Origin: Escherichia coli
GTDB taxonomy: Bacteria > Pseudomonadota > Gammaproteobacteria > Enterobacterales > Enterobacteriaceae
Assembly: GCF_029227855.1 (NCBI RefSeq)
Contig: NZ_CP074356.1
Strand: one strand, 5' to 3'
DNA length: 64,000 bases
Numbering within the stretch: position 1 is the stretch's first letter; every line of letters begins with the position of its first letter. The notes beneath the pieces are model-generated. The model was not told the origin of the DNA and did no database searches. It saw only the letters and a program-made list of their open reading frames with translations. Positions 4,287 through 23,369 of the stretch are shown in pieces. Made by a program: the position numbers and the translations under genes.

Positions 4287-6263
4287 ATGCAGCTTAATCA
4301 TATCGTTAAAAGTCTGCTAATAACGGGATTATTCACCACCAGTTCTTTACCTCTCCTCGCGGCGGAAGCTCCTAAAGACGCCACCGCAGCCACGCAACAA
4401 GCAAACAATTTACTCTACAACCAGTTGCCGTTTGCCGATAACACTGACTTTACTGATGCCCATAAAGGTTTTATTGCCCCTATCCCTCAAGACGTGATTA
4501 AGGGCGAACAAGGGAATGTTATCTGGGATCCACAACATTACGCTTTTATCAAAGAAGGCGATAAAGCCCCTGATACGGTGAATCCGAGTTTATGGCGTCA
4601 GGCGCAACTGATAAATATCAGCGGGTTATTCGAAGTAACTGAAGGTGTCTATCAGATTCGCAATCTCGATCTATCAAATATGACCATCATTGAAGGCAAA
4701 GAGGGTATTACCGTCGTTGATCCCCTTGTTTCAGCAGAAACAGCCAAAGTGGGTATGGATCTCTATTACAAAAATCGCGGCAAAAAACCGGTAGTGGCGG
4801 TTATCTATACACACAGTCATGTCGATCACTACGGTGGTGTTCGTGGCGTAATTGATGAAGCTGACGTTAAATCAGGCAAAGTTAAAATCTATGCGCCAGC
4901 CGGATTTTTGGAGGAAGCCGTTTCCGAAAACATCATGGCTGGCAATGTTATGAGCCGACGAGCCAGTTATATGTATGGCAACTTATTGAAACCTGATGTT
5001 AAAGGCCAGGTGGGGGCTGGACTGGGAACGACTACTTCAGCAGGAACAGTCACGTTGATTGCTCCTACTAACTACATCACCAAAACCGGACAAAAAGAAA
5101 CTATTGACGGGTTGACTTATGATTTCCTGATGGCGCCAGGTTCTGAAGCGCCTTCTGAAATGCTGTGGTTTATTGAAGAAAAGAAACTGATCGAAACCGC
5201 TGAAGATGTCACGCACACCCTTCATAACACCTATTCGCTGCGTGGGGCTAAAATTCGCCAACCGCTGCCGTGGTCAAAATATATTAATGAAGCTCTCAAT
5301 TTGTGGGGTGATAAAGCCGAGATTATTCTCGCTCAACATCACTGGCCAACCTGGGGCAACGATAACGTGGTCAAACTGCTTAAAAGCCAGCGTGATTTGT
5401 ATCGTTACATCAATGATCAAACTCTGCGCATGGCTAATCAAGGGATGACCCGTGATGAAATTGCCGCAAACTTTAAACTGCCCTCTTCACTGGCTAACAC
5501 CTGGGCGAATCGCGGCTATTACGGTTCGGTAAGTCATGACGTGAAAGCAACTTACGTGCTTTATCTCGGCTGGTTTGATGGTAACCCCGCGACGCTTGAT
5601 GAACTGCCGCCAGAAGAAGGCGCAAAAAAATTCGTCGAGTATATGGGCGGTGCTGATGCCATTTTACAGAAAGCCAAACAGGATTATGACCAGGGTAATT
5701 TCCGCTGGGTTGCCCAAGTTGTTAGTAAGGTGGTGTTTGCCGATCCAAACAACCAGGCAGCGAGAGATCTGGAAGCTGATGCGCTTGAGCAGTTAGGCTA
5801 TCAGGCTGAATCTGGGCCGTGGCGTAATTTCTATCTCACTGGTGCACAGGAATTGCGTAATGGCGTACAAAAATTACCAACACCAAATACTGCCAGCCCA
5901 GACACCGTGCGTGCGATGACGCCGGAGATGTTCTTTGATTATCTTGCCGTCCATATTAATGGTGAGAAAGCGGCAGATGCCAAAACCGTGTTGAATTTCG
6001 ATTTTGGTGAAGATGGCGGCACCTATAAAGTGGAGCTTGAAAATGGTGTTCTCAATCATACCGCTGGTGTAGAGGCTTCGGATGCTGATGCCACTATCAC
6101 TCTGTCTCGTGATGTATTGAACAAAATTGTACTGAAAGAAGAGACGCTGAAAGAAGCCACGGCCAAAGGAGATGTCAAAATTACTGGCAATGAGGAAAAA
6201 CTCAACGAGCTGTTAGGTTATATGGATAATTTTGAATTTTGGTTCAATATAGTGACACCATAA
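4287..6263 (+). CDS. Secreted YjcS/SdsA1-like alkyl (aryl) sulfatase, metallo-beta-lactamase fold
   Basis: 658 aa; N-terminal signal peptide (LLITGLFTTSSLPLLAAEA); THSHVDHYGG metal-binding motif; RBS GGAGA upstream. Accessory relative to the K-12 gene order as remembered. Confidence 0.8.
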   Translation: MQLNHIVKSLLITGLFTTSSLPLLAAEAPKDATAATQQANNLLYNQLPFADNTDFTDAHKGFIAPIPQDVIKGEQGNVIWDPQHYAFIKEGDKAPDTVNPSLWRQAQLINISGLFEVTEGVYQIRNLDLSNMTIIEGKEGITVVDPLVSAETAKVGMDLYYKNRGKKPVVAVIYTHSHVDHYGGVRGVIDEADVKSGKVKIYAPAGFLEEAVSENIMAGNVMSRRASYMYGNLLKPDVKGQVGAGLGTTTSAGTVTLIAPTNYITKTGQKETIDGLTYDFLMAPGSEAPSEMLWFIEEKKLIETAEDVTHTLHNTYSLRGAKIRQPLPWSKYINEALNLWGDKAEIILAQHHWPTWGNDNVVKLLKSQRDLYRYINDQTLRMANQGMTRDEIAANFKLPSSLANTWANRGYYGSVSHDVKATYVLYLGWFDGNPATLDELPPEEGAKKFVEYMGGADAILQKAKQDYDQGNFRWVAQVVSKVVFADPNNQAARDLEADALEQLGYQAESGPWRNFYLTGAQELRNGVQKLPTPNTASPDTVRAMTPEMFFDYLAVHINGEKAADAKTVLNFDFGEDGGTYKVELENGVLNHTAGVEASDADATITLSRDVLNKIVLKEETLKEATAKGDVKITGNEEKLNELLGYMDNFEFWFNIVTP

Positions 6264-6275
6264 ATTTACTGCATA

Positions 6276-6301
6276 CCGGGCAGGTATCCTGCCCTTTTTT
6301 G
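6276..6301 (+). terminator. Rho-independent terminator after sulfatase gene
   Basis: GC stem gggcagg-tat-cctgccc followed by T-run (tttttt). Confidence 0.7.
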
Positions 6302-6309
6302 GTTAAAAA

Positions 6310-7407
6310 ATGGCTGAACGAAGAAAAACTCATCACTCATGGAAAACCCGCCGCAATATGGTTATTCGCGGCATGACGATTAGTTTGCCATGGTTTGCTT
6401 TTATCAATGTCAGTTTTGCATTGATAATTTTGCTGCGCCGTGTTCTGTTTAATGACCTTACTCCACCCTGGTTAAATGAAAAAAGCCTTATACATTCTAT
6501 TGATATATCTGCAACGGGTATTCTGCTGATTTGCAGTGGTTTACTACTCATCCCTCGGCAAAAAACATTACCTATCCAGGTGCTATTAGTTGCCCTGAGC
6601 CTGCTATGGTCATGGTGTAGTTATCACTTTATTGCGTACTGGACGCTGCAGTTTGCTTATCCACTATGTGTATTATTAATGCTTAGTGGCGTTGTCGCAA
6701 TTTATTTCCATACCCCATCATTGCTCGCATTTGTCATTCCCTTATGGTTCACCACTCCAATAGCGAGTCTTATGCTTAATCAACAGATCAATATTCATTT
6801 TGCTGTTGTATGGTGTATTTTTTCACTGGCGCTATATGGTGGGCGACTCATTTTGTTACGTTGGTTTGAAGAAGCATGGGTACAAAACAGTTATAACAAC
6901 CAGTTAATTAATCGCCTTGATGCATTAGCACATCGTGCTCCTTTAACTGGGATAGCAAACCGACGTGCAATGAACAGTATCTTACACGACACGATGGATA
7001 ACGGCGGGTCATTTGCTCTTATTATGCTGGATGTCGATTTTTTTAAACGTTACAACGACACTTACGGGCATCCTGCTGGGGATCGTTGTCTAATACAAGT
7101 TGCCGACGCTCTACAGCGTTCAACTCGCCAGTCGGAGGATGTTGTTGTCCGTTATGGTGGCGAAGAGTTTGCCATCATACTTTTTAATGCAACATTGCCG
7201 GAAGCAGAGACGGTAGCAGCCAGAGTGAAGCAAGAACTTAAACTGGCAGCTATCCCACATCAGGCATCTGCTGTTAATGCATTCGTTACGGTTAGTCAGG
7301 GGATTACCTGTTCTGCTCCCGCAAAAACGGCTGAACAAATTATTTCAGATGCCGACGCTGCGTTATACCGGGCGAAAGAAAGTGGGCGAAATCGATGGGC
7401 TTTATAA
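6310..7407 (+). CDS. Membrane-anchored diguanylate cyclase (GGDEF domain, intact GGEEF active site)
   Basis: 365-aa ORF; N-terminal half has multiple hydrophobic helices, C-terminal half has the RYGGEEF motif. Exact start uncertain (alternative ATG at 6358). Confidence 0.75.
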   Translation: MAERRKTHHSWKTRRNMVIRGMTISLPWFAFINVSFALIILLRRVLFNDLTPPWLNEKSLIHSIDISATGILLICSGLLLIPRQKTLPIQVLLVALSLLWSWCSYHFIAYWTLQFAYPLCVLLMLSGVVAIYFHTPSLLAFVIPLWFTTPIASLMLNQQINIHFAVVWCIFSLALYGGRLILLRWFEEAWVQNSYNNQLINRLDALAHRAPLTGIANRRAMNSILHDTMDNGGSFALIMLDVDFFKRYNDTYGHPAGDRCLIQVADALQRSTRQSEDVVVRYGGEEFAIILFNATLPEAETVAARVKQELKLAAIPHQASAVNAFVTVSQGITCSAPAKTAEQIISDADAALYRAKESGRNRWAL

Positions 7408-7480
7408 GCATTAGGGGACTGGACAGATTACGTCTCTCCTCGCTTAACAAGGGCTGACGGAGGGTAATAATTGTCTATAG

Positions 7481-8032
7481 CTATCTTCTTAGCGATGTCT
7501 TTCTGGTATCACATTGGGTCGGTGCAATTATTTTTCCTTTAATACCCATTATGTTAAGAAATTCAGAAACAGCTGTAATCTCATTGTTTTTTTCATTCGT
7601 CTTGATCTTCCAAGGAATCTGACTGTGCATTATTGAGAACACACTAATAACGTGAATCGCTCCCTTGCGACGACTCTTGTCATAAGAGTACCGGAGCGTT
7701 TTTCCATCAATTGCAATGACGTCTTTATCATCTGAAGAATGGCAGTCAAGCATCCAGTTAATAAAGCACTCATGAAATTTTTCAGGACTGATACAGGATA
7801 CAACTCTGGCAATGGTATCGTGAACAGGAATACCATTATCAAAATCACCATATTGCTTCAAAAAATCGAGATGTGTTTCCCCAAAATCCTCTATATCTTC
7901 CCAGCCTTCTGCACCCGAAATAATGGCACAAATAGTCAACAGTAGAATATCCGATAATTTATGTTCCACTTTCCAGGCTTGTCTGTAATCGGGGGTAATA
8001 GAAATATGTTCCATCAATTTTTTAAATTCCAT
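7481..8032 (-). pseudogene. Truncated H-repeat-associated (ISAs1-family) transposase, N-terminal 5' fragment
   Basis: 183-aa ORF about 85 percent identical over roughly 170 aa to the N-terminus of the intact H-rpt ORF at 14075..15211, then diverges and terminates; shared upstream flank as well. Confidence 0.8.
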
Positions 8033-8617
8033 TTTGTTCTCCTTAATTATGTAAGGAGTATTTGATCATGTATAAGCAATAAAAAACAGCTTTAGGTAAT
8101 GAGGAATATCTCAATTTTTAAACATAAAATGCGAATTATTTAGTACAAAAAAGCAGCGTTACGTGATCTTTCCGTGGATCGTCAAATTGTTCGAGAGAAA
8201 ATACCAACATGATGGATTTTACTGTAAAAGTAATGTCGTAGTTTAAAAACTCATCATCCGGTAAAGCCTTGTGGGGCGTGGGCTTTCATACTTTTACCCT
8301 GATGTCTGCTATACGCCGGACACCCTTTACGTAGCATTCGGAATTCACCCGTAAATTTATCACGGCGGTATCACGAAACCTCCGGTTCTGATGCCGCTTA
8401 GGACTAACGACACGTCAACACAGGTTCGGGTTTATTCATTTCACTGTATCTCATATAATCTGAGCACTCCCCCTGCGCTCGCTACTATGACTCTTTACCA
8501 CAGCAACCGGGGTTGTTTGGGATCGGCTTTCAACAGCAGATCCCGGTGGCTATTGCAAGTAAGTCTACTTTCCACATCAGTGTTACTGACACAGAAAATA
8601 ATGAGTTATGATCCTTG

Positions 8618-9103
8618 TCATATTTTTAATATAGCCCCATGAGCTATAGGATCAAAACCTTCTAACCATGAGGTGTTTTTATCGAATAATGCACCTGTTA
8701 TATTTATATCGCCATATCTATCACATAATAAATTAGCGCCACATAAGTCAGCACCAGAAAAATTTGAATCTTTAACGTCTGCATTGCAAAAGGTTGAATT
8801 AGTTAATATAGCACCCTCAAAGTTTGCACCTATTGACCTTGAATTACTAAAGTCACTTCCAGTGAAATCTGAGTTATTAAGAATAGCGTTCATCAGAGCC
8901 GCATTGCGAAAGACAGCATTTCTAGTTGATGTATGTTGAATCATTACATTTCTTAAATGGGAATTTTCAAATTTCGCCCCATCAAGACAATAACCATTGA
9001 GGATGGCACGATGTAGATCCATCCCGCTAAAATCATATCCAGCAAGAGTGGTACTATCTATATCAAGAAATTTATTGGTTATTAAAAACGCGATTCTTAT
9101 CAT
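8618..9103 (-). CDS. Pentapeptide-repeat protein, predicted Rhs immunity protein (positional equivalent of K-12 ydcD)
   Basis: 161 aa; about 20 consecutive A(D/N)(L/F)xx-type pentapeptide repeats ([15 protein letters not shown] ... [15 protein letters not shown]); start codon overlaps the rhs stop in ATGA arrangement; AT-rich. Confidence 0.8.
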
Positions 9104-12100
9104 CTATTCCCCCAATCATCTAACTCCGGAAAAATTTGGCTAAACGGATATAGTGGTGCCGATAATGGACGCGTACCTGGCCGCTCAGGAGGAAGTTTAT
9201 CACATAACAGACCCGCAACCATCCTGTGATTACCATTAACAATCACATTCCCATCCATATCAACCGGTGGTGCTCCACTACCATCTTCCAGCATTTGTAC
9301 GTAGTGAGCTACTACGGGTACTGAGACTTTTTGTTGTACTGTCAACAAGGGACTGTTGGCCACAACCATCCTGATGTTTTCAGGTGTCGCAGGTAAACAT
9401 TTAGTCTTCTCTTGACTAAAGGTATCATCCCACAATTTTGTTAAACCCATCACTGCCTGTTGTCTGTATTTATCCATGGGGTCAGCAATCAACCAAGATG
9501 GACCTGACTGCTCTATGGAATCTTCTCCGGAGAGACCCAACGGATCTATCTTAGTAGTTGGATTCAATGGATACTGATACAGGTTCCATGCACCTCTTAG
9601 CCCAATGGGATCCTGGGTGATATACCGCCCCTGCAACGGGTCATAGTACCGGTTGCGGTTATAGTACAGCCCCGACTCCTCATCATACTGCTGCCCCGGC
9701 AGACGGTACGGCTGTTGCAGTTGCTGCGCGCTGGTTTCGCCCAGCAGGTTTCCCCACTCGTCATACTCCCCCTGCCACGCCGTTTCCCCTACCGGGCTGA
9801 TGAGCGCCTGCGGCAGCCCCCGGTGGTCGCAGTGGTAAAGATGAAGTGTCCTCTCCGGGATGTATTCCGCCTCCATCTGGTTTTTCATCTGTTCCGCCGT
9901 CAGCCCGCACTGCTGAAGCCATGCCTCACTCTCCGCACTCACCGCACCCGCGCGCAGTTCCCGCTCCAGCCTCCCCAGCATCACCGACAGCTCCGCCGGT
10001 AGCGTCACCCCCGTGTCCTCCTGCAACACCTCCGCCAGACTCCGGTGCCGCGCCTTCGCCTGTTCACCATTCTCTGTTTCGATTCTGATGAGCGGCGTGA
10101 AGCTCCCCGGCTGGTATACCGTCTGGATACGCGTGGTGCCGGTCTGTACCGTCGTCAGCCTGTCACCGTCCCACCCGTACCAGGTCTCCTCCGGTTTACG
10201 CGACAGCGACATCCACCCCGTCAGGTCACGCTCCCGCCGCCACACCCGTTTCCCCGTCCGGCGGCCCAGCGGGTCATAGAGGTAGCGGCTCTCCACCTGT
10301 GGTTCGCCGTGCTGTATCCGCGTGTAGAACACCAGGCGGTGCTGGCTGTCGTAATGGTAGTGGTGGGTCCGCTCGTCGTGCATCCGGATAACCCCTTCCG
10401 GGATACGATCCGTCTTCTCCGCCAGCCTGCCGTATTCATCGTGGCGGTAGACATAGTGCGCATCCTCCGCGATGCGGTTATCCGGCCACGCCGTGAAGGT
10501 GCTGTCCGGGTGCAGTTCCGGGTCCGGCAGCCGGTTTCCTGCCGGGTCCGTCGCATACGGGATATCGATATCCAGGTTCGCCGCCGTGGTGTGAACGCCC
10601 GTCAGTCTTCCCGTGTCGCTGTAACGGTACTTCCGGCTCTCCTGCGGGCCGCTGATGCGCACCAGTTGCCCGTTATCGTTCCACGTATACTCACGGTCAA
10701 GCTGCGGAAGGTTCAGGTGCCTGCTCCGGAGCTGCCCTGTGAGGGTGTACGCCATGGCCTGTTCGTACCCCGCTGTACTGCCCGCCCCGCCGAAGCTGCG
10801 GGCCGTCTCACGGTGCAGCCGGTCCCGCGTGTACTCGACCAGCGGCGTTCCGCCCAGCTTCATCCCCGCAAGATAACCGCTGCCATACGTCAGCCACTCC
10901 ACCGGCGGCAGACCGTCCGGCTCCTGACGGGTCGCCAGCCCCTGTTCGCTGTAGACGTGCCTCGTCTCATGCTCCCACAGCATCTCCCCCGTCTCCTGGT
11001 TCTCCACCGTCTGCCGTTCGCCCGTCAGGCGGCCTTTATCGTCATAGCCGTAGTGGACCGCCACACGGTGGCCTTCGCTCAGGTGGCTGATTTCTGTCAG
11101 CCAGCCGTGGTCGTCATACTGCCACTGCTCCGCCGGGTCGCCGTTCACCGTCCGGTGCGTGATGCGCCCGGCGTCATCGTAGTACCACTGCGTGACCTGC
11201 CCCTCATCCTCGCTGCGGATGAGCTGCCCTGTGGCGCTGTACCGGTAACGCTGTGTCCTGCCGTCAAAGCCGCGCTGCTCCGTCAGCCTGTCCACCGGGT
11301 CATACCGGAACGTGGACTGGCTGCCGTTCTCGTTGGTCAGCACGGTGATGCGCCCGGCGGCGTCATACTCCATGCTGCGCGTCAGTCCGCCCTGCGTGGT
11401 GCTGACGGCCTTTCCCCACGCATCATACTGTGTCTCACTCCGGCTGCCGTTCGGGGCAATGATAGCGGTGAGGTCGCCTGCGGCGCTGTACTCATAACGG
11501 GTTTCACGTCCCTGCGCATCCTTCTGACTGACCAGTTGACCACGCGGGTTATAACTGCTGTAAGTGCTGATGCCTTCCTCCCGGTGAACCGCCGTCCTCT
11601 GACCGTACCGGTCGTATTCATACCGCGTCGTGTACCCTGAACAGTCCGTAAATGCCTGAAGCTGACCGTACCGGTTTCGCGTTATTCTCCGCCTCACCCC
11701 GGTTCCGTCTTCCACCGCACAGGGCAGGCCACTGCGGGAAGAATCATAAAACCAGCGCGTAATGTTACCGTTGCGCGAGACCTCTTCCGCCAGCCTGCCC
11801 TGACGGTCATATTTCCGGCTGCGGCGCAGCCCGTCCGGGTACGTCACTGACGTCAGTTGCAACTGGTTGTTGTAACCATACCGTACCGTCCTGCCGTCCG
11901 GCAGTATCACTGAAGTCAGCTTTCCCGACGCCATATGCAGCCGGTACTCCGTCCGCCGTCCCGCCGCATCCGTCTGCGCCTTCAGCCTCCCCGCCTCATC
12001 ATACTCGCTGCGGGTGATGCTCCCGTCCCCATGCTCCTTCTTCACCACCCGCTTCAGGCCGCCCTCGCCCTCCGTGTACAGCACCTCCCGCCGGTTCAGG

Positions 12101-13311
12101 CTGTCCGTGATGGTCACGCGGTCCTGCCCGTACTCAAAGCGGTAGTCCAGCCCCTCCGGGTTGACCTGCTCCGTCACCCGACCGGTATCATCATACCGGT
12201 AGCGGCTCTCCGGCCTCCCCGCATAATGGTGCGCCACCATCCGCCCGGCGTGCTCCGCATCATAAGTAAACCCGCGCACCTGCGTCCCGCTGCGGTCATA
12301 CACCGCCCGCAGTTCTCCGCTGGCCGTGTACGTGTAGCGCGCCAGCGGCGCAGTCGGCAGTTCATCCAGGTATGCCAGGTCGTGTGTCAGCCATACCGCC
12401 TCCAGCCGGATACCGTTATCGGCACCGTACTCTGTACCGGTGGGCAGCGTGTCGGGGAAAACCTGAGAAGAGGAAACAGAACGGGGACTGGCCGGAGAAG
12501 ATAAAGAAGAGGCGCGCTGTTTACGGAAGGCTTTCGCCCGCTGCGCCTGTGTGGTCAGCGCCAGATGAAAACGGCGGCCCGCGCCGTCCGTCACCCCCGT
12601 CACCGCGCCCGCCGCTTCCCCCTCTGCCGCCCGGTGGAAGGCCAGCGTCCGCCCGAAGCTGTCCACCACGCCCGTCAGCACCCGGTATGCGGGCGGCTCC
12701 GGCGGCAGCACCTCGTCCGCCTCCGGCACCCGCTCCGGCCAGCCGAGTATCCACCACGGCCCCTGAAGGCTGTTTGTCGCCAGGTACACATGCGGGCTTA
12801 AGCGGAGACTCTCCGGCAGCACCTGCCAGAGCGCGCTTAGCGGCTGCGAACTGTGCTGCTCCGCCACCCCGCCCCTTGCCAGCCAGAACGACTCGCTGCG
12901 GCTGTAGCTTATCTCGCCGGGAAACAGCGGCTCAAAGTGAATGCTCCTGCCGCCACTGTCGTTGAGTATCAGTTCCCGCTCATGAACCTGTAAGCGGATA
13001 TCGAAGGGCGCTTTCCAGCCGGGACCAAACACCCCCACCGGCGCGGGTGTTCTGGTCCGGTAGCTGCTGTAGGCGCGGGAAAGAATAAACGGCAACGGGC
13101 CGGGCAGCGCAAGATCCGTCTCGCCCGGCAGCACCTTCGCACCCAGTAGCGGGTTCACCGGGTTACCCTTCTGCTCCTCCACCGGGCTGTTGGGACACAC
13201 CGAGCAGGCCACTCCCGTCGGCGCACCTATCAGCACCCCCGCTGAACCCTGCACAATATCCAGTCCCTTGCGGGTCATATCGCCCTGTCGCGCCGCCGGT
13301 TTTCCGCTCAT
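9100..13311 (-). CDS. Rhs polymorphic toxin, full length (PAAR-like N-terminus, YD-repeat core, variable C-terminal tip with ParB-like motif)
   Basis: 1403 aa; N-terminus [11 protein letters not shown]; long GC-rich YD-repeat core; core-end DPxGL motif (..DPIGL..KIDPLGL) followed by an AT-rich roughly 143-aa tip (about 9100..9531). Confidence 0.9.
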
Positions 13312-13731
13312 GGTTTATTCCTTAAATTATTTATGGTTTTATTCTGAGTGCAATCCATACTGATTCATAACCAGTGAATAAGATTTCCCCGAATAATCTA
13401 TATAAATTAGCGAAGTCCTCTTCACTAATTAACCGTAAAATCCCGTACCAATGAAATATAAAAATAACCACCCACACAAATTTATTGCAAATATTATTCA
13501 TTATTGTATATACATCATTCACTGAACGTTCTCAAACTGCATACCTTAGAACCATCAATTAAAGCCACAACAAAAAAATCGATTACTTTATGTCGCATGA
13601 CAAATATGAATTACATATTAATCAACCTTAAAAACAATCATCTCTTATAATTAACAGCATACCATGAGAAACACAAAATCAATTTACCATGCATACCAGG
13701 AGCATAATTAACCTCTCACCGCAGGGCGAAA

Positions 13732-14097
13732 TCATGAAGGCCCGCAGCCAGCAAGGATTAGAGAAAGGTATTCATTCTTACGTCCTGCCCGCTTTTGCTT
13801 GCGTTTAATACCCGCTTTAAAGCTATTCTCTGCGGTCAGTAAATTCATCGCGATATGTCGACAAACTGCCAGATTTTCTCCCGCTTCTCCACGAACAATC
13901 TGGCATTCATCTTCCCGCATCCCCATATCAAGTCGCCAGTGCAGTTGATTTTCTACCGACCAGTGTGCTCGTGTTGCTTCCAGGAGTTCTTTCGCCGTAA
14001 GCGTCACCGAACTTATGTAGTAGCGAAGAATACACTTCTCTGATTTCACCGCTGTTTCTCCTTCCAGGGCAAGATTACGAAAGCCCGCTCCCCGCAA
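13732..14097 (-). pseudogene. H-repeat (ISAs1-family) transposase C-terminal fragment, diverged copy
   Basis: 121-aa ORF whose C-terminal 95 aa align to the C-terminus of the intact H-rpt protein (HWxVENxLHWRLD motif). Confidence 0.65.
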
Positions 14098-15211
14098 GGA
14101 CTGACGCCAGATAGTTTCTGTCCATGGCTGCTTTTCGCATCTTACGTCTTAACCCTGCCTTGAATACCTTATCATTCGTTAAAATATTAATAGCGATGTG
14201 CCGTATCCCTGAAAATAATTCTGCGGCGTTTCCTCTTCCTATTTTGCAGTCGTCTTCATTCATTACCACGTCCAGACGCCAGTGCAGCTTATTCTCCACG
14301 TGCCAGTGGTTTCGGATTGCTGTGGCGAACTTCTCTGCGGTTAAATCAGCAGAACTGATATAATATCTGACCGTCATTTCTGGCTCTTTCTTTTGTTCTG
14401 CTATTATTGACCGAAAGGAGACTGCCACGCATAATTTCTTCAGTCCTTTCCATTCAAACATTAAATCAATAAGTTCATCAGGGACATCACAAACAATGTG
14501 AAGACGGATTTCTTCTCTGCCGTGACTCTTTTCACTAATTGCGTAACTGTCATGCTCTGGATTATTTAATTCTTTCAGTGGGAATTTTTCCTCAAAGGCT
14601 TTATTTAGCCGCCCCTGGTTTCCTTTTACAGCGAATAAATAATCACCTCCCTGTTTTTGTATCTTCTCTGCAATATCTTTCTGGCAACCCATCGCATCAG
14701 TTGTGATGATTTTTCCTTTAATATCCAGCATGTTAAGAAGTTCAGGGATAGCTGTAATTTCATTTGATTTCTCATCCGTCCTGATCTGTCCGATGACCAG
14801 ACTGTGCATTGTTGAGAACGCACTAATGACATGAATCGCTCCCTTGCGGCGACTCTTGTCATAAGGATGCCGGAGTGTTTTTCCATCAATTGCGATGACG
14901 TCTTTATCAGCTGAAGAATGGCAGTCACGCATCCAGTTAATAAAGCACTCGTGAAATTTTGCAGGACTGATACAGGATACAACTCTGGCAATGGTATCGT
15001 GAACAGGAATACCATTTTCAAAATCACCATATTGCTTCAAAAAATCGAGATGTGTTTCCCCAAAATCCTCTATATCTTCCCAGCATTCTGCACCAAAAAT
15101 AACGGCACAAATAGTCAACAGTAGAATATCCGACAATTTATGTTCCACTTTCCAGGCTTGTCTGTAATCGGGGATAATAGAAATATGTTCCATCAATTTT
15201 TTAAGTTCCAT
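14075..15211 (-). CDS. H-repeat-associated protein / ISAs1-family transposase (intact)
   Basis: 378 aa, recognised as E. coli H-rpt (YdcC/YhhI-like) protein. Confidence 0.9.
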
Positions 15212-15487
15212 TTTGTTCTCCTTAATTATGTAAGGAGTATTTGATCATGTATACGCAATAAAAAACAGCTTTAGGTAATAAGGAATATCTCAATTTTTAA
15301 ACATAAAATGCGAATTATTTAGTACAAAAAGTGAACTTCTGATGATCTTTCCCTGCCCATTGGGTTCATTAAGATCAAGAATAATGGGAATATGCTCAAG
15401 AAGACTTTGAATGTTCACCAGACGTCCTTTTCTAATATATTTAATTATTTGGCGATTAAATTTTAATCAAATCAACAAGGTAAAACC

Positions 15488-15525
15488 AAGATTAAAGTTG
15501 TGATGATAATCACAACTTTAATGAT
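15488..15525 (-). terminator. Hairpin downstream of Rhs copy-2 immunity gene (putative terminator)
   Basis: 14-bp perfect stem attaaagttgtgat/atcacaactttaat with a 4-nt loop; a short U-run follows on the minus strand. Confidence 0.45.
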
Positions 15526-15557
15526 CTTCCCCTGATTCCTCCAGTCCTTTTATTTGG

Positions 15558-15932
15558 TTACTCTAATGGTTTTATTAATTGTAAATTTTTAAATGTCATG
15601 CTTAATAAGCCATCAGAAAAATAAAGAAAAAATTTATATATCCTTTTGTTTTTTAATTTCTTTATATACCCATTACTTATATTACCTGACTTGTGATTAT
15701 CGATTAACTCAGCAGAATCCATAGCGAACACTAAATCATCTACATCAGAAAATTCAACTATCATTTTTTCCCTAATGTTCTCATTTTTATAAATGTCAAT
15801 AAATAACGTCATGTTAAAATGAGATTCTTTGAATGTCGTTTTTACTTCTAACAAAACCCCATCATGCCAGTCAATTGAACTCACAATGTCAAAATCGCTC
15901 ATTATATAATCTCCATTATCCGTTTTAATCAT
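15558..15932 (-). CDS. Predicted immunity protein for Rhs copy-2 toxin (hypothetical, AT-rich)
   Basis: Start chosen at MIKTDNGDY so that ATG overlaps the toxin stop (ATGA coupling); very AT-rich; no recognisable domain. Longer alternative start at 15965. Confidence 0.6.
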
Positions 15933-18900
15933 GGAGTAACAACGTTTGCAGGTATTGACCACCAAAGAGGTGGTGCAAGTGAAGGTATAAATCGAATCAC
16001 TCTATATATAACATACCCTGCGCCAATTGTAGCACCAGTTGCAAGAGCCGCATCAGTAGTTGATAGCCCAGAGGTTTTGCATGACAGATCTTTACTTGGT
16101 TCTGGCTCGAAACCATATTTTTTTGCACATTTCTTAATGCTATTTGGTGCTGATGAGTAATCCTCACCATGGGACATACCTCCAAATTCCCCCATTACAC
16201 CACTCCCATTTTTACACTCCCAATGCAAATGTCTTCCGTCACCAACAGCATCGCCATCTATTCGGATTCGACAACCTTTACCACAGTCCTTCCATTTTCC
16301 TGAAGTATGAGCTAATCCCAATGGATCAATCCATTGCACAGGATTGTTCATAACATAACTGTACGGGTTTATTCCCCCCGCCAGCCCTATCGGGTCCTGG
16401 ATGATATACCGCCCCTGCAACGGATCGTAGTACCGGTGACGGTTATAATACAGCCCCGACTCCTCATCGTGTTGCTGCCCTGGCAGACGGTACGGCTGGT
16501 GCAGGTGATGCGGGTTTTCCTCATTCAGCAGGTTCCCCACTCATCATACTCCCCGCTCCACGCCGTATTGCCGTCTTCGCTGATGAGCGCCAGCGGCAGG
16601 CCCCGGTGGTCGCAGTGGTAAAGATGAACTTTTCGCGCCGGTGTGTATTCCGGCTCCACCTGTCTGGCCAGTTGCTCCACCGTCAGCCCGCACTGCGCAA
16701 GCCACGCCCGGCTTTCGTTACTCACGCGGTCTGCCCGGATTTCTCCCTCCAGCCTGTCCAGCAGCCGCACCAGTTCAGCCGGGAACACCACACCGTGCCC
16801 GTCCTCACTCCCTTCCGACTGTAACTTCTCCGCCAGGCTGCGGCGCTGCGCTTTCTCCCGTTCGCCGTTCTCTGTTTCGATGCGGATGAGTGGCGTGAAG
16901 CTTCCCGGCTCGTATACCGTCTGGATACGTGTGGTGTCAGTCTGCACCGTCGTCAGCCTGTCGCCGTCCCACCCGTACCATGTCTCCTCCGGTTTACGCG
17001 ACAGCGACATCCACCCCGTCAGGTCACGCTCCCGCCGCCATACCCGTTTCGCCATTCGCCGTCCCAGCGGGTCGTAGAGGTAGCGGCTCTCGACCAGTGG
17101 CTCGCCATGCTGTATCCGCGTGTAGAACACCAGGCGGTGCTGGCTGTCGTAGTGGTAGTGGTGGGTCCGCTCGTCGTCCGTCCGTATCACACCCGCCGGG
17201 ATGCGGTCCGTCTTCTCTGTCAGCCTGCCGTATTCATCGTGGCGGTAGACATAGTGCGCATCCTCCGCGATGCGGTTATCCGGCCACGCCGTGAGTGTAC
17301 TGTCCGGGTGCAGCTCCGGGTCCGGCAGCCGGTTGCCCGCCGGGTCCGTGGCATACGGGATGCGGATGTCCAGGTCCGGTGCGAGGGTGCGTACACTCGC
17401 CAGCCTGCCCGTGGCACTGTAGCCGTATTCCCGCGTCTGTCGCGGGCCGCTGATGCGCACAAGGTCGCCGTTGTCATTCCACCCGTAGTCACGGTCATAC
17501 ACCAGGCTGTTCAGGTGCTGGCTCTGTAACTGGCCTGCAGGGGTGTATGTGCTGGTCAGTTCGTATGCGGCATTACTGCCTGCCATGCTGCCAAAGCTGC
17601 GCACCGTCTCCCGGTGCAGCCTGTCCCGCGTATACTCGACCCGCGGCGTCCCGCCCAGCTTCATTCCCGCCAGGTAACCGCTGCCATAGGTCAGCCACTC
17701 CACCGGCGGCAGGCTGTCCGGCGTGACGCGGTTTGCCAGCCCCTGTTCGTTGTATGCCTGTTTCGTCTCATGCTGCCACAGCAGTTCCCCCGTCTCCGGG
17801 TTCTTCACCGTCTGGCGCTCACTGGTCAGACGGCCTTTATCGTCATAGCCGTAGTGGACCGCCACACGGTGGCCTTCACTGGTATGGCTGAGGGTGGTTA
17901 ACCACCCGTGCTCATCATACTGCCACTGCTCTGCCGGGTCGCCGTTCACCGTCCGGTGCGTGATGCGGTCTGCTTCATCGTAGTACCACTGCGTGACCTG
18001 CCCCTCATCCTCGCTGCGGATGAGCTGCCCTGTGGCGCTGTACCGGTAACGCTGTGTCCTGCCATCAAAGCCGCGCTGCTCCGTCAGGCGGTCCAGCACA
18101 TCGTAGGTAAATTCACTCCGGCTGCCGTTCTCGTTGGTCAGCGTGGTGACACGTCCTGCCGCGTCATACTCCATACTGCGCGTCAGCCCGCCCTGCGTGG
18201 TGCTGACCGCTTTTCCCCACGCATCGTACTGTGTCTCGCTCCGGTTGCCGTCCGGGGTGATAACGGCAGTCAGGTCGCCTGCGGCGTTGTACTCATACTG
18301 CGTTTCACGGCCCTGTGCGTCTTTCACCGAGGTTAACCGGCCACGGTTGTCATAGCGGCGGTAACGGCTGATACCTTCCTCGCGGTGGACCGCCGTCATC
18401 TGACCAAAGCGGTCGTATTCATAGCGGGTCTGGTAGCCCGAGCAGTCGGTGAACGCCAGCAACTGACCGTAGCGGCTCCAGGTCATCTGCCGGGTGCTGC
18501 CCGTCGCATCCATTGTCGTCGCCGGTAACTCACTGTACGCGTCATCGTAGCGGTAGCGTACTGTCTCCCCGCTGCGCGATGTCTCCGTTACCAGCCTGCC
18601 CGGTTCATCATATGCCCGGCGGCTCTCCAGCCCGTCCGGGGACACCACTGCCGTCACCTGGTTCCCGTCGTTATAGTAAAATTTCGTCTCCCGCCCGTCC
18701 GGTGTGGTGATGTCCGTGATATCGCCTGACACCACATTCAGACCGTACTCTGTCCGCCGTCCCGCCGCGTCCGTCTGCGCCGTAAGCCTTCCTGCCGCGT
18801 CATACCCACTGTGCGTGGCGCTGCCGTCCGCCAGTTCTTTTTTCACCACCCGCCTCAGCCCGGCCCCGCCTTCTGTATGCAGCACCTCACGCCGGTTCAG

Positions 18901-22263: not shown

Positions 22264-23369
22264 AGCAACCTCCGTGAAAATGAATAATAATCCGCACATA
22301 TTGCATGTACAACATGTCGGGCGGATGAGATAAGCGAGTCGACATCTGGCGTTACCGGGGAATATCAAAAAAATGTCATGGTTATGTGATGATTTAGTCT
22401 GGGATTTTACTTCAGAGAAACGGGTGTCTGTTTAGTCAACAAAATAATCACAAACGCAACGGATGGGTTCTCGACGTTATTCACGACAGGCTCGTACATT
22501 ACAGCGAGTAATAAAAACCTGATATGCAAAGTCAAACCAATATTCATAATGTCTTTTTATTCACAACAATAAATAATTCAATAACAATCATTGAAATGAA
22601 TGATGGTTTGTATAAGGAATATACGCTACCGCCCCACCCTGATAACATGATCTGCACATTGCCATCTTAACGTCGTTAAACACTGGCTTAATAGTGGATA
22701 TTTAAAATTAGGAATTTATTAAATTCACCTGATGAATATCATAAGCAAATAGCATAGAAAATAATGACAACTCCCCCGAGGGGACCATTTCCAAAGCACT
22801 GCACCACCACCTGGTGCCCGGATGATCTTGCTTCAGTGGTAAGAGTACCTGATTCATTGTTCCCAAAATGGTGTTTTCCCGGGCCCCTCCAATAATGTGC
22901 AACTCTCACGTGATAATCTATTGATTAGGTTATATTAAGAATCAATATTTGAAATACATCCATTTTCTTGAATAAATCAACATGTTTATTTATCAATTGC
23001 TGTTTTAGCTCTGACTCATCAAGCTCTCCATATTTGTCCTACAGATAATCGCGAATAAATACAGAGAACGCCATTTATCCTTTTAGCATACCTGCCGGAT
23101 ATTTTTATTTGTATTAATATTAATTGCATCTCCAACTCCGGGCATATCCATCATTAAAAACATTTTGAGATTATAGAATGCCTGTGATAACAACTGAAAC
23201 ATCTGCACAATGTGAATAGTTAGTTTCTTTTCAGAGGAAATGAAATAGACAAGCTGAATGAAAGGGAGAGTGATATAAATTAAAAAAATAACATGAATCT
23301 AATTAATTACGTCCATCATTGTGGATAAAGTTACTGAATAATAAATAACATAATCTTCTGGTATCCCAC

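Follow-up and report, generated by a model that had tools for sequence, protein, structure and literature searches.

A unique, AT-rich and apparently non-coding segment between a decayed insertion sequence and an Rhs gene in a variant of the Escherichia coli rhsE locus

The DNA that directly precedes the Rhs copy 1 gene (Rhs1) in the rhsE region of Escherichia coli is best explained, with a probability that we put at roughly 60%, as a non-coding, lineage-restricted leader of an alternative form of this locus, left behind by an IS-mediated rearrangement and serving Rhs1 either through weak transcription of its own or through read-through from upstream. The segment is real but ordinary, a piece of unique, apparently non-coding DNA found in one variant of the rhsE locus. 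In the course of events that we favor, the segment probably derives from AT-rich DNA that belonged to the non-core part of an older Rhs array; an IS would then have inserted, and an IS-associated rearrangement would subsequently have removed the upstream parts of the array, vgrG together with its leader. The upstream limit of the segment coincides exactly with the right end of a decayed ISAs1-family IS, and its downstream limit with the Rhs1 start codon. With 70% A+T, it offers several weak sigma-70-like sites along with H-NS-type motifs, and it probably provides Rhs1 with low, H-NS-repressible transcription or merely relays read-through on the same strand.

The entire stretch of DNA that we analyzed, 64 kb in length and referred to here as the window, represents the E. 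coli rhsE region (nhoA-yddH-pptA ... yncG-ansP-yncE-pqqU-mcbR), and the genes of interest are all located on its minus strand (Table 1). Read along this strand, the order is vgrG, Rhs2, a small ORF, ISEc1, 343 nt of an element labeled ISAs1* in this analysis (a decayed IS that is not ISEc1), the AT-rich segment, Rhs1, the gene for a pentapeptide-repeat protein, and a 5' fragment of H-rpt. The C-terminal 148 amino acids of Rhs1 (after DPLGL; 9100-9545) gave no match in Pfam, and a pentapeptide-repeat protein would be an uncommon type of Rhs immunity protein. The frameshift in Rhs2 lies near the end of the core (16525-16540), where the 203-aa ORF overlaps the 1187-aa ORF; the JNEC-KY178 copy of this gene is annotated as frameshifted as well.

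Table 1. Positions of the features discussed in the text, in the numbering of the 64-kb window
Feature	Position	Strand	Remarks
Pentapeptide-repeat protein	8618..9103	-	presumed Rhs1 immunity gene
Rhs copy 1 (Rhs1)	9100..13311	-	intact, 1403 aa, ATG at 13311; DUF6531, RHS repeats
Shine-Dalgarno region AAGGAATAAACC	13312..13323	-	last 12 nt before the Rhs1 ATG
AT-rich segment proper	13312..13721	-	410 bp, GC 30.5%; unique, unannotated, from IS end to Rhs1 start codon
63-aa ORF	13331..13522	-	GTG start; stop codon 19 nt ahead of the Rhs1 ATG; most likely due to chance
Best sigma-70-like site, TTGAGA-17-TATATA	13507..13535	-	PWM 9.42; weak, below the typical best of shuffles
Second candidate, TTGATT-15-TGgTATGCT	13656..13682	-	extended -10-like (13664-13656); weak
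ISAs1* 3' end	13722..14064	-	final 343 nt, terminal inverted repeat included, of a decayed member of the ISAs1 family; NCBIfam transpos_ISAs1 E=3e-26
ISEc1 (H-rpt)	14065..15355	-	complete, 1291 bp; transposase ORF 15211-14075
Rhs2	20088-16525	-	1187-aa ORF, frameshift, then 203-aa continuation with Tox-WTIP tip
vgrG	22368-20155	-	
37-nt block	22621..22657	-	directly abuts the ISAs1* left end in the majority layout; in the window ~250 nt upstream of vgrG

An AT-rich stretch upstream of Rhs copy 1 had been proposed to extend from 13312 to 13731. Its base composition is indeed extreme, with a GC content of 30.5% over 13312-13721 as compared with ~50% for the whole window and 60-70% for the adjoining Rhs core; within the 64 kb, a comparable AT-richness is reached in the tip/immunity region of Rhs2 alone (15200-16000, 29-30% GC). 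The lower limit of the proposed span is correct, whereas the upper one has to be moved to 13721, as positions 13722-13731 are already part of the IS, namely of its terminal inverted repeat; this repeat, CAGGGCGAAATCATGAAGGCCC, begins at 13722 on the plus strand. In several genomic contexts, copies of the closest relatives of ISAs1* all terminate at ...CTTCATGATTTTGCCCTG (homologous ...GCCCTG) and diverge thereafter, which places the end of the IS in the window at 13722. The inverted-repeat pattern CAGGG-AAA-ATGAA-GCCC-...-CAAG is legible at the left and right ends of both types of IS, and the segment lies outside these terminal repeats. The neighbor on the upstream side had been taken for the 3' fragment of an H-rpt element. 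It is no piece of ISEc1: 14064-13722 represents the last 343 nt of a different ISAs1-family element. When 13312-14097 served as the megablast query, similarity to ISEc1 was confined to the first 33-40 nt, the true end of a complete ISEc1, and a 121-aa ORF (13732-14097) spans the junction between ISEc1 and ISAs1*.

Within E. coli, ISAs1* is found at this locus only, and it is decayed, with an internal stop; in the comparison locus L003 it occupies 12413-13730. Other E. coli elements of the ISAs1 family match it at ~68% nucleotide identity and over partial stretches only. Its nearest protein relatives are encoded on metagenome contigs with a GC content of ~44-46% (75-81% amino-acid identity), followed among the named relatives by those of Oceanisphaera and Vibrio (60-65% identity) and by the ISAs1-family transposases of Salmonella and Citrobacter (~50%), a pattern of sequence relatedness which suggests that ISAs1* came from outside E. 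coli. We also considered the segment as a part of the IS, or as DNA traveling with it, and excluded this, given that the flanks of the nearest ISAs1* relatives (75-76% amino-acid identity) are unrelated to the segment. A search for a target-site duplication around ISAs1* found none. As a separate observation, both ISAs1* and the 5' H-rpt fragment downstream of Rhs1 (8020-8305) possess a left arm that is ~130 nt longer than that of ISEc1 (compared with ISEc1 at 15200-15355; L001 ~14040-14170). This arm has its own repeat, CAGGG...ATGAAAGCCC, and precedes the start of the 1291-bp ISEc1 (CAGGGAAAGATCA); the H-rpt elements present here consequently have two nested left ends.

Searched with a 420-bp query, 144 of 5426 complete E. 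coli genomes contain the segment, each as a single copy of at least 99% identity that is always chromosomal and always located in the rhsE locus. Blastn searches at word size 11 detected no diverged copies in E. coli, and there was no match in plasmids or phages. In searches of genome collections that relied on exact 18- or 20-mers, which copies below ~90% identity would escape, an 18-mer of the segment produced no more than two chance matches (Fimbriimonadaceae and Hymenobacter) in 100,044 species, each represented by one genome, and a 20-mer retrieved eight contigs from the JGI metagenomes, all of them with the same E. coli locus, layout and majority haplotype. Comparison by sensitive blastn and tblastx with the rest of the window and with two RhsH loci carrying dsORF-h1 yielded nothing above chance, and no donor sequence for the segment emerged from these searches. 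Since the copies of the segment are 99.5-100% identical, their conservation is uninformative with respect to constraint.

The metagenome contigs add a different kind of information. Behind an unchanged segment, the Rhs gene falls to 92-93% identity from ~50 nt into the ORF on one contig and from ~600 nt on another, and a third contig carries a different C-terminal Rhs tip behind the same segment. With the Rhs body varying and the segment not, the latter is best viewed as a stable unique flank to an Rhs body that recombines with its paralogues; in these contigs, the breakpoints of recombination inside the Rhs gene adjoin the stable flank. The segment itself is interrupted in NMBU_W05E18 (5288-8025), where a copy of IS1 cuts it at approximately window position 13515; the half on the ISAs1* side is inverted between two IS1 copies in this genome, and Rhs1 has been lost along with its neighbors up to yddG.

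In the majority layout, found in 141 of the 144 carriers, a yncG pseudogene is followed by a full-length ISAs1* with an internal stop, the segment, Rhs1, the pentapeptide-repeat protein, a 5' H-rpt fragment, a GGDEF gene, a sulfatase gene and pptA. The premise of the original prediction, namely that Rhs1 is cut off from vgrG, accordingly holds in an even stronger form, for in these 141 genomes neither a vgrG nor a second Rhs gene lies upstream of Rhs1 at all. The junction of ISEc1 with ISAs1* as found in the window is present in only three complete genomes (KE55, JNEC-KY178, and GMF065), and JNEC-KY178 alone among the complete genomes possesses both Rhs genes and the full layout of the window. 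In KE55, the left 130 nt of ISAs1* are followed by a complete ISEc1 and then by the right 343 nt of ISAs1*.

The ordinary rhsE form has the order yncG-yncH-vgrG-RhsE(Tox-WTIP)-imm-ISEc1, and the alternative form the order ISAs1*-segment-Rhs1. The junction that links the Rhs2 tip and its immunity region to ISEc1 (ydcC) in the window is that of the ordinary layout, present in 359 genomes. With this junction so common and the alternative form represented by 141 genomes, the tandem-Rhs layout of the window is best read, from the junctions, as a rare fusion of the ordinary and the alternative form that would have occurred at ISEc1. In the majority layout, the left end of ISAs1* is immediately adjacent to a block of 37 nt that lies ~250 nt upstream of vgrG in the window, which fits a loss of vgrG through IS-associated rearrangement. 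This block (GTGCAGATCATGTTATCAGGG..GCGGTAGCGTAT) is kept in both forms of the locus with differing flanks; it contains a CAGGG motif like those of IS ends and may represent an old solo IS end.

Does the segment encode anything? The 63-aa ORF is present on the minus strand exactly where it had been predicted. That it is the only ORF holds for a minimum length of at least 60 aa; below this limit, nine further ORFs of 23-57 aa lie inside the segment or overlap it. All six frames are otherwise full of stops. The hydrophobic character attributed to the 63-aa product proved to be only moderate, with a GRAVY value of 0.54 and a best Kyte-Doolittle mean over 19 residues of 1.49. ORFs of at least 63 aa arise in 6% of shuffled random 410-mers of matched composition and in 12% of those generated by a first-order Markov model, and the length of this ORF is therefore not beyond chance. 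PGAP annotation leaves the segment empty in all complete genomes listed, a search with the Rfam covariance models gave no match at E<=1, and RNA folding of the segment against shuffles revealed no unusual stability (z = -0.44). From this absence of evidence we infer that the segment is non-coding and that the 63-aa ORF most likely arose by chance. A gene of very recent origin would present the same picture.

It had been suggested that the small ORF might be a relic immunity gene. More broadly, the segment could be the decayed toxin tip and/or immunity gene (dsORF) of a former upstream Rhs gene that was cut by ISAs1*, with the 63-aa ORF as a remnant of the immunity frame. Such an origin would agree with the GC content of 30%, which is like that of Rhs tip/immunity DNA (15200-16000), with the placement of immunity genes just before the next Rhs start in tandem Rhs arrays, and with the typical location of H-rpt/ISAs1 elements downstream of Rhs tips. 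The ORF is furthermore on the Rhs strand and terminates shortly before the Rhs1 start codon, and in an RhsH-type locus 76 nt separate the end of dsORF-h1 from an Rhs gene with an identical ribosome-binding site of 12 nt. The search of the ORF against immunity protein families that had been proposed as a check nevertheless yielded no match: neither the 63-aa nor a 48-aa ORF of the segment hit any family in Pfam (Imm families included) or NCBIfam at E<=1. Among 5.8 billion clustered proteins (word-indexed search), the 63-aa ORF recovered its own E. coli cluster only. An exhaustive phmmer search of 1.84 billion representatives returned this cluster and two proteins of 844 and 3806 aa that have no alignable stretch and were set aside as composition artefacts. 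A tblastx comparison of the segment with the immunity genes in the window and in the RhsH loci was negative as well, and the stop codons throughout the six frames and the chance-level length of the ORF argue in the same direction. In all 144 genomes, the upstream neighbor of the segment is an IS end and not an Rhs toxin tip. We therefore consider the relic immunity gene unsupported, and a descent of the segment from a tip or immunity gene unlikely.

It is scarcely probable that the ORF encodes a genuine small membrane protein of very recent origin, which would be translated just before Rhs1 and might be an accessory factor, an immunity-like one or a peptide resembling a type I toxin. The ORF contains one hydrophobic stretch (residues ~14-32), shares the strand of Rhs1 with tight spacing to it, and is called a hypothetical protein by some gene callers; yet no clear Shine-Dalgarno sequence accompanies its GTG start, its peak hydropathy remains under the usual transmembrane threshold, no homologues turned up in either of the two protein searches, its length is within chance, and no complete genome listed carries a PGAP call for it.

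The one part of the segment that has a recognizable counterpart elsewhere is its very end. Starting at the ATG, Rhs1 and Rhs2 share 74-90% identity up to the end of the core, and this similarity ceases a few bases upstream of the ATG. The alignment of other E. coli Rhs genes with Rhs1 begins either at the ATG or 12 nt ahead of it (query position 98), and the same 12 nt, AAGGAATAAACC, precede the Rhs gene that follows dsORF-h1 in RhsH-type loci. Of the segment, only these 12 nt are common to other Rhs genes, and the remaining 398 bp are unique; the sharing marks the ribosome-binding site as a property of the Rhs family. The notion that the segment might represent the usual spacer between vgrG and Rhs was rejected, the corresponding spacer in the window measuring 66 nt and being unrelated to it except for a few bases around the ATG.

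As the sole non-IS DNA between the IS and Rhs1 in the majority layout, the segment is the only place for a native promoter, and in this respect its nomination as a promoter candidate stands. The sequence itself does not strengthen the case, for no sigma-70-like site rises above what the composition predicts. A consensus scan picked out a single sigma-70-like site, located on the strand opposite to that of Rhs1, and none on the strand of Rhs1 itself; this count is within the number expected from shuffles. With a position weight matrix (PWM), whose hexamer frequencies are approximate and follow published compilations, the best score on the Rhs strand was 9.42 versus a best of 10.86 +/- 1.47 in shuffles, and six sites scored at least 8 versus 6.3 +/- 2.7 in shuffles. 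With the consensus scan empty and the PWM no better than shuffles, the argument for a promoter role is purely positional.

Work on Salmonella gives no reason to expect a strong promoter here: a stretch of 200 nt upstream of the full-length rhs gene (P1 region) was without reporter activity, the full-length rhs gene and the T6SS genes of SPI-6 are reported to be silenced by H-NS, and internal promoters drive the expression of Rhs toxin tips (PMC7043789). With up to two mismatches permitted, the 410-bp segment contains five matches to the H-NS-type motif TCGATAAATT versus 96 in the 64 kb, as expected from composition alone; the segment possesses the high A+T content and the nucleation motifs of an H-NS-bound AT-rich island, as would any stretch with 70% A+T.

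Read-through into Rhs1 is equally open, since the upstream genes (the IS transposase and yncG', and in the window also vgrG-Rhs2) are on the same strand and no convincing terminator intervenes. The only terminator-like hairpin, formed by the IS end at 13731-13714, is weak (seven pairs, three of them G-C, with a poor T tract), and the number of such sites is within chance. One may consequently ask whether the segment has no promoter at all, Rhs1 being transcribed solely by read-through from the ISAs1*/ISEc1 transposase, yncG' or, in the window, vgrG-Rhs2, or not at all, which would reduce the segment to an inert spacer with a ribosome-binding site. The lack of a sigma-70-like site on the Rhs strand, the PWM scores at or below those of shuffles, the common orientation of every upstream gene, the weakness of the hairpin, and the inactivity of the Salmonella P1 region in the reporter assay (PMC7043789) are all compatible with this proposal. 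Against it, the internal stop of ISAs1* in the majority layout and the frameshift of Rhs2 would each invite Rho-dependent polarity upstream of Rhs1, weak starts are usually numerous in AT-rich DNA of this type, and Rhs1 is intact in several examined assemblies in which no operon lies upstream. On balance, we regard a segment wholly devoid of promoter activity as somewhat unlikely.

The leader that we favor can be set beside several known systems. In E. coli Rhs elements, AT-rich tips, dsORFs and H-rpt/ISAs1 sequences flank a core that is rich in GC (PMC3032704). Like these non-core parts, the segment is located within an rhsE element, combines 30% GC with a neighboring core of 60-70% GC, adjoins an IS of the H-rpt type, and occurs in several rearranged layouts. 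Unlike them, it lies upstream of an Rhs start instead of downstream of a core, has no coding content, and lacks relatives in other Rhs elements. In E. coli, it is common for Rhs genes to lack a neighboring vgrG, rhsA-D being examples (PMC7216683). Rhs1 resembles these in having no vgrG neighbor in the majority layout and in the ribosome-binding 12-mer that it has in common with other Rhs genes, whereas no sequence similarity was found between the segment and the regions upstream of rhsA-D, and it is an IS end rather than a housekeeping gene that bounds the segment. With acquired AT-rich DNA silenced by H-NS, it shares 70% A+T and a local density of H-NS-type motifs, a resemblance in composition only. 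Finally, the location immediately before an Rhs start, within a possible former tandem array, the strand, and the AT-richness recall Rhs immunity genes (dsORFs/RhsI), from which the segment differs in having no gene-length open frame, no family match and no homologue.

A more ambitious interpretation would turn the same DNA into a functional module: an IS-mediated rearrangement would have cost the locus its vgrG and brought a PAAR-like Rhs toxin under the control of a new promoter, gated by H-NS and located in foreign AT-rich DNA, perhaps together with a newly arisen 63-aa membrane peptide translated immediately before Rhs1. We think this very improbable. Were it true, toxin expression would be uncoupled from the VgrG partner in one lineage of E. 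coli. For the leader that we prefer, the importance beyond annotation is little, and neither it nor the read-through, relic and small-protein readings would surprise a specialist. What the segment does delineate is an alternative form of rhsE. In this form, represented by 141 of the 5426 complete E. coli genomes, a decayed IS precedes an intact Rhs toxin gene and vgrG is lacking. Anyone who studies Rhs expression in carrier strains and looks for a promoter directly upstream of Rhs1 has no non-IS DNA to turn to except this segment.
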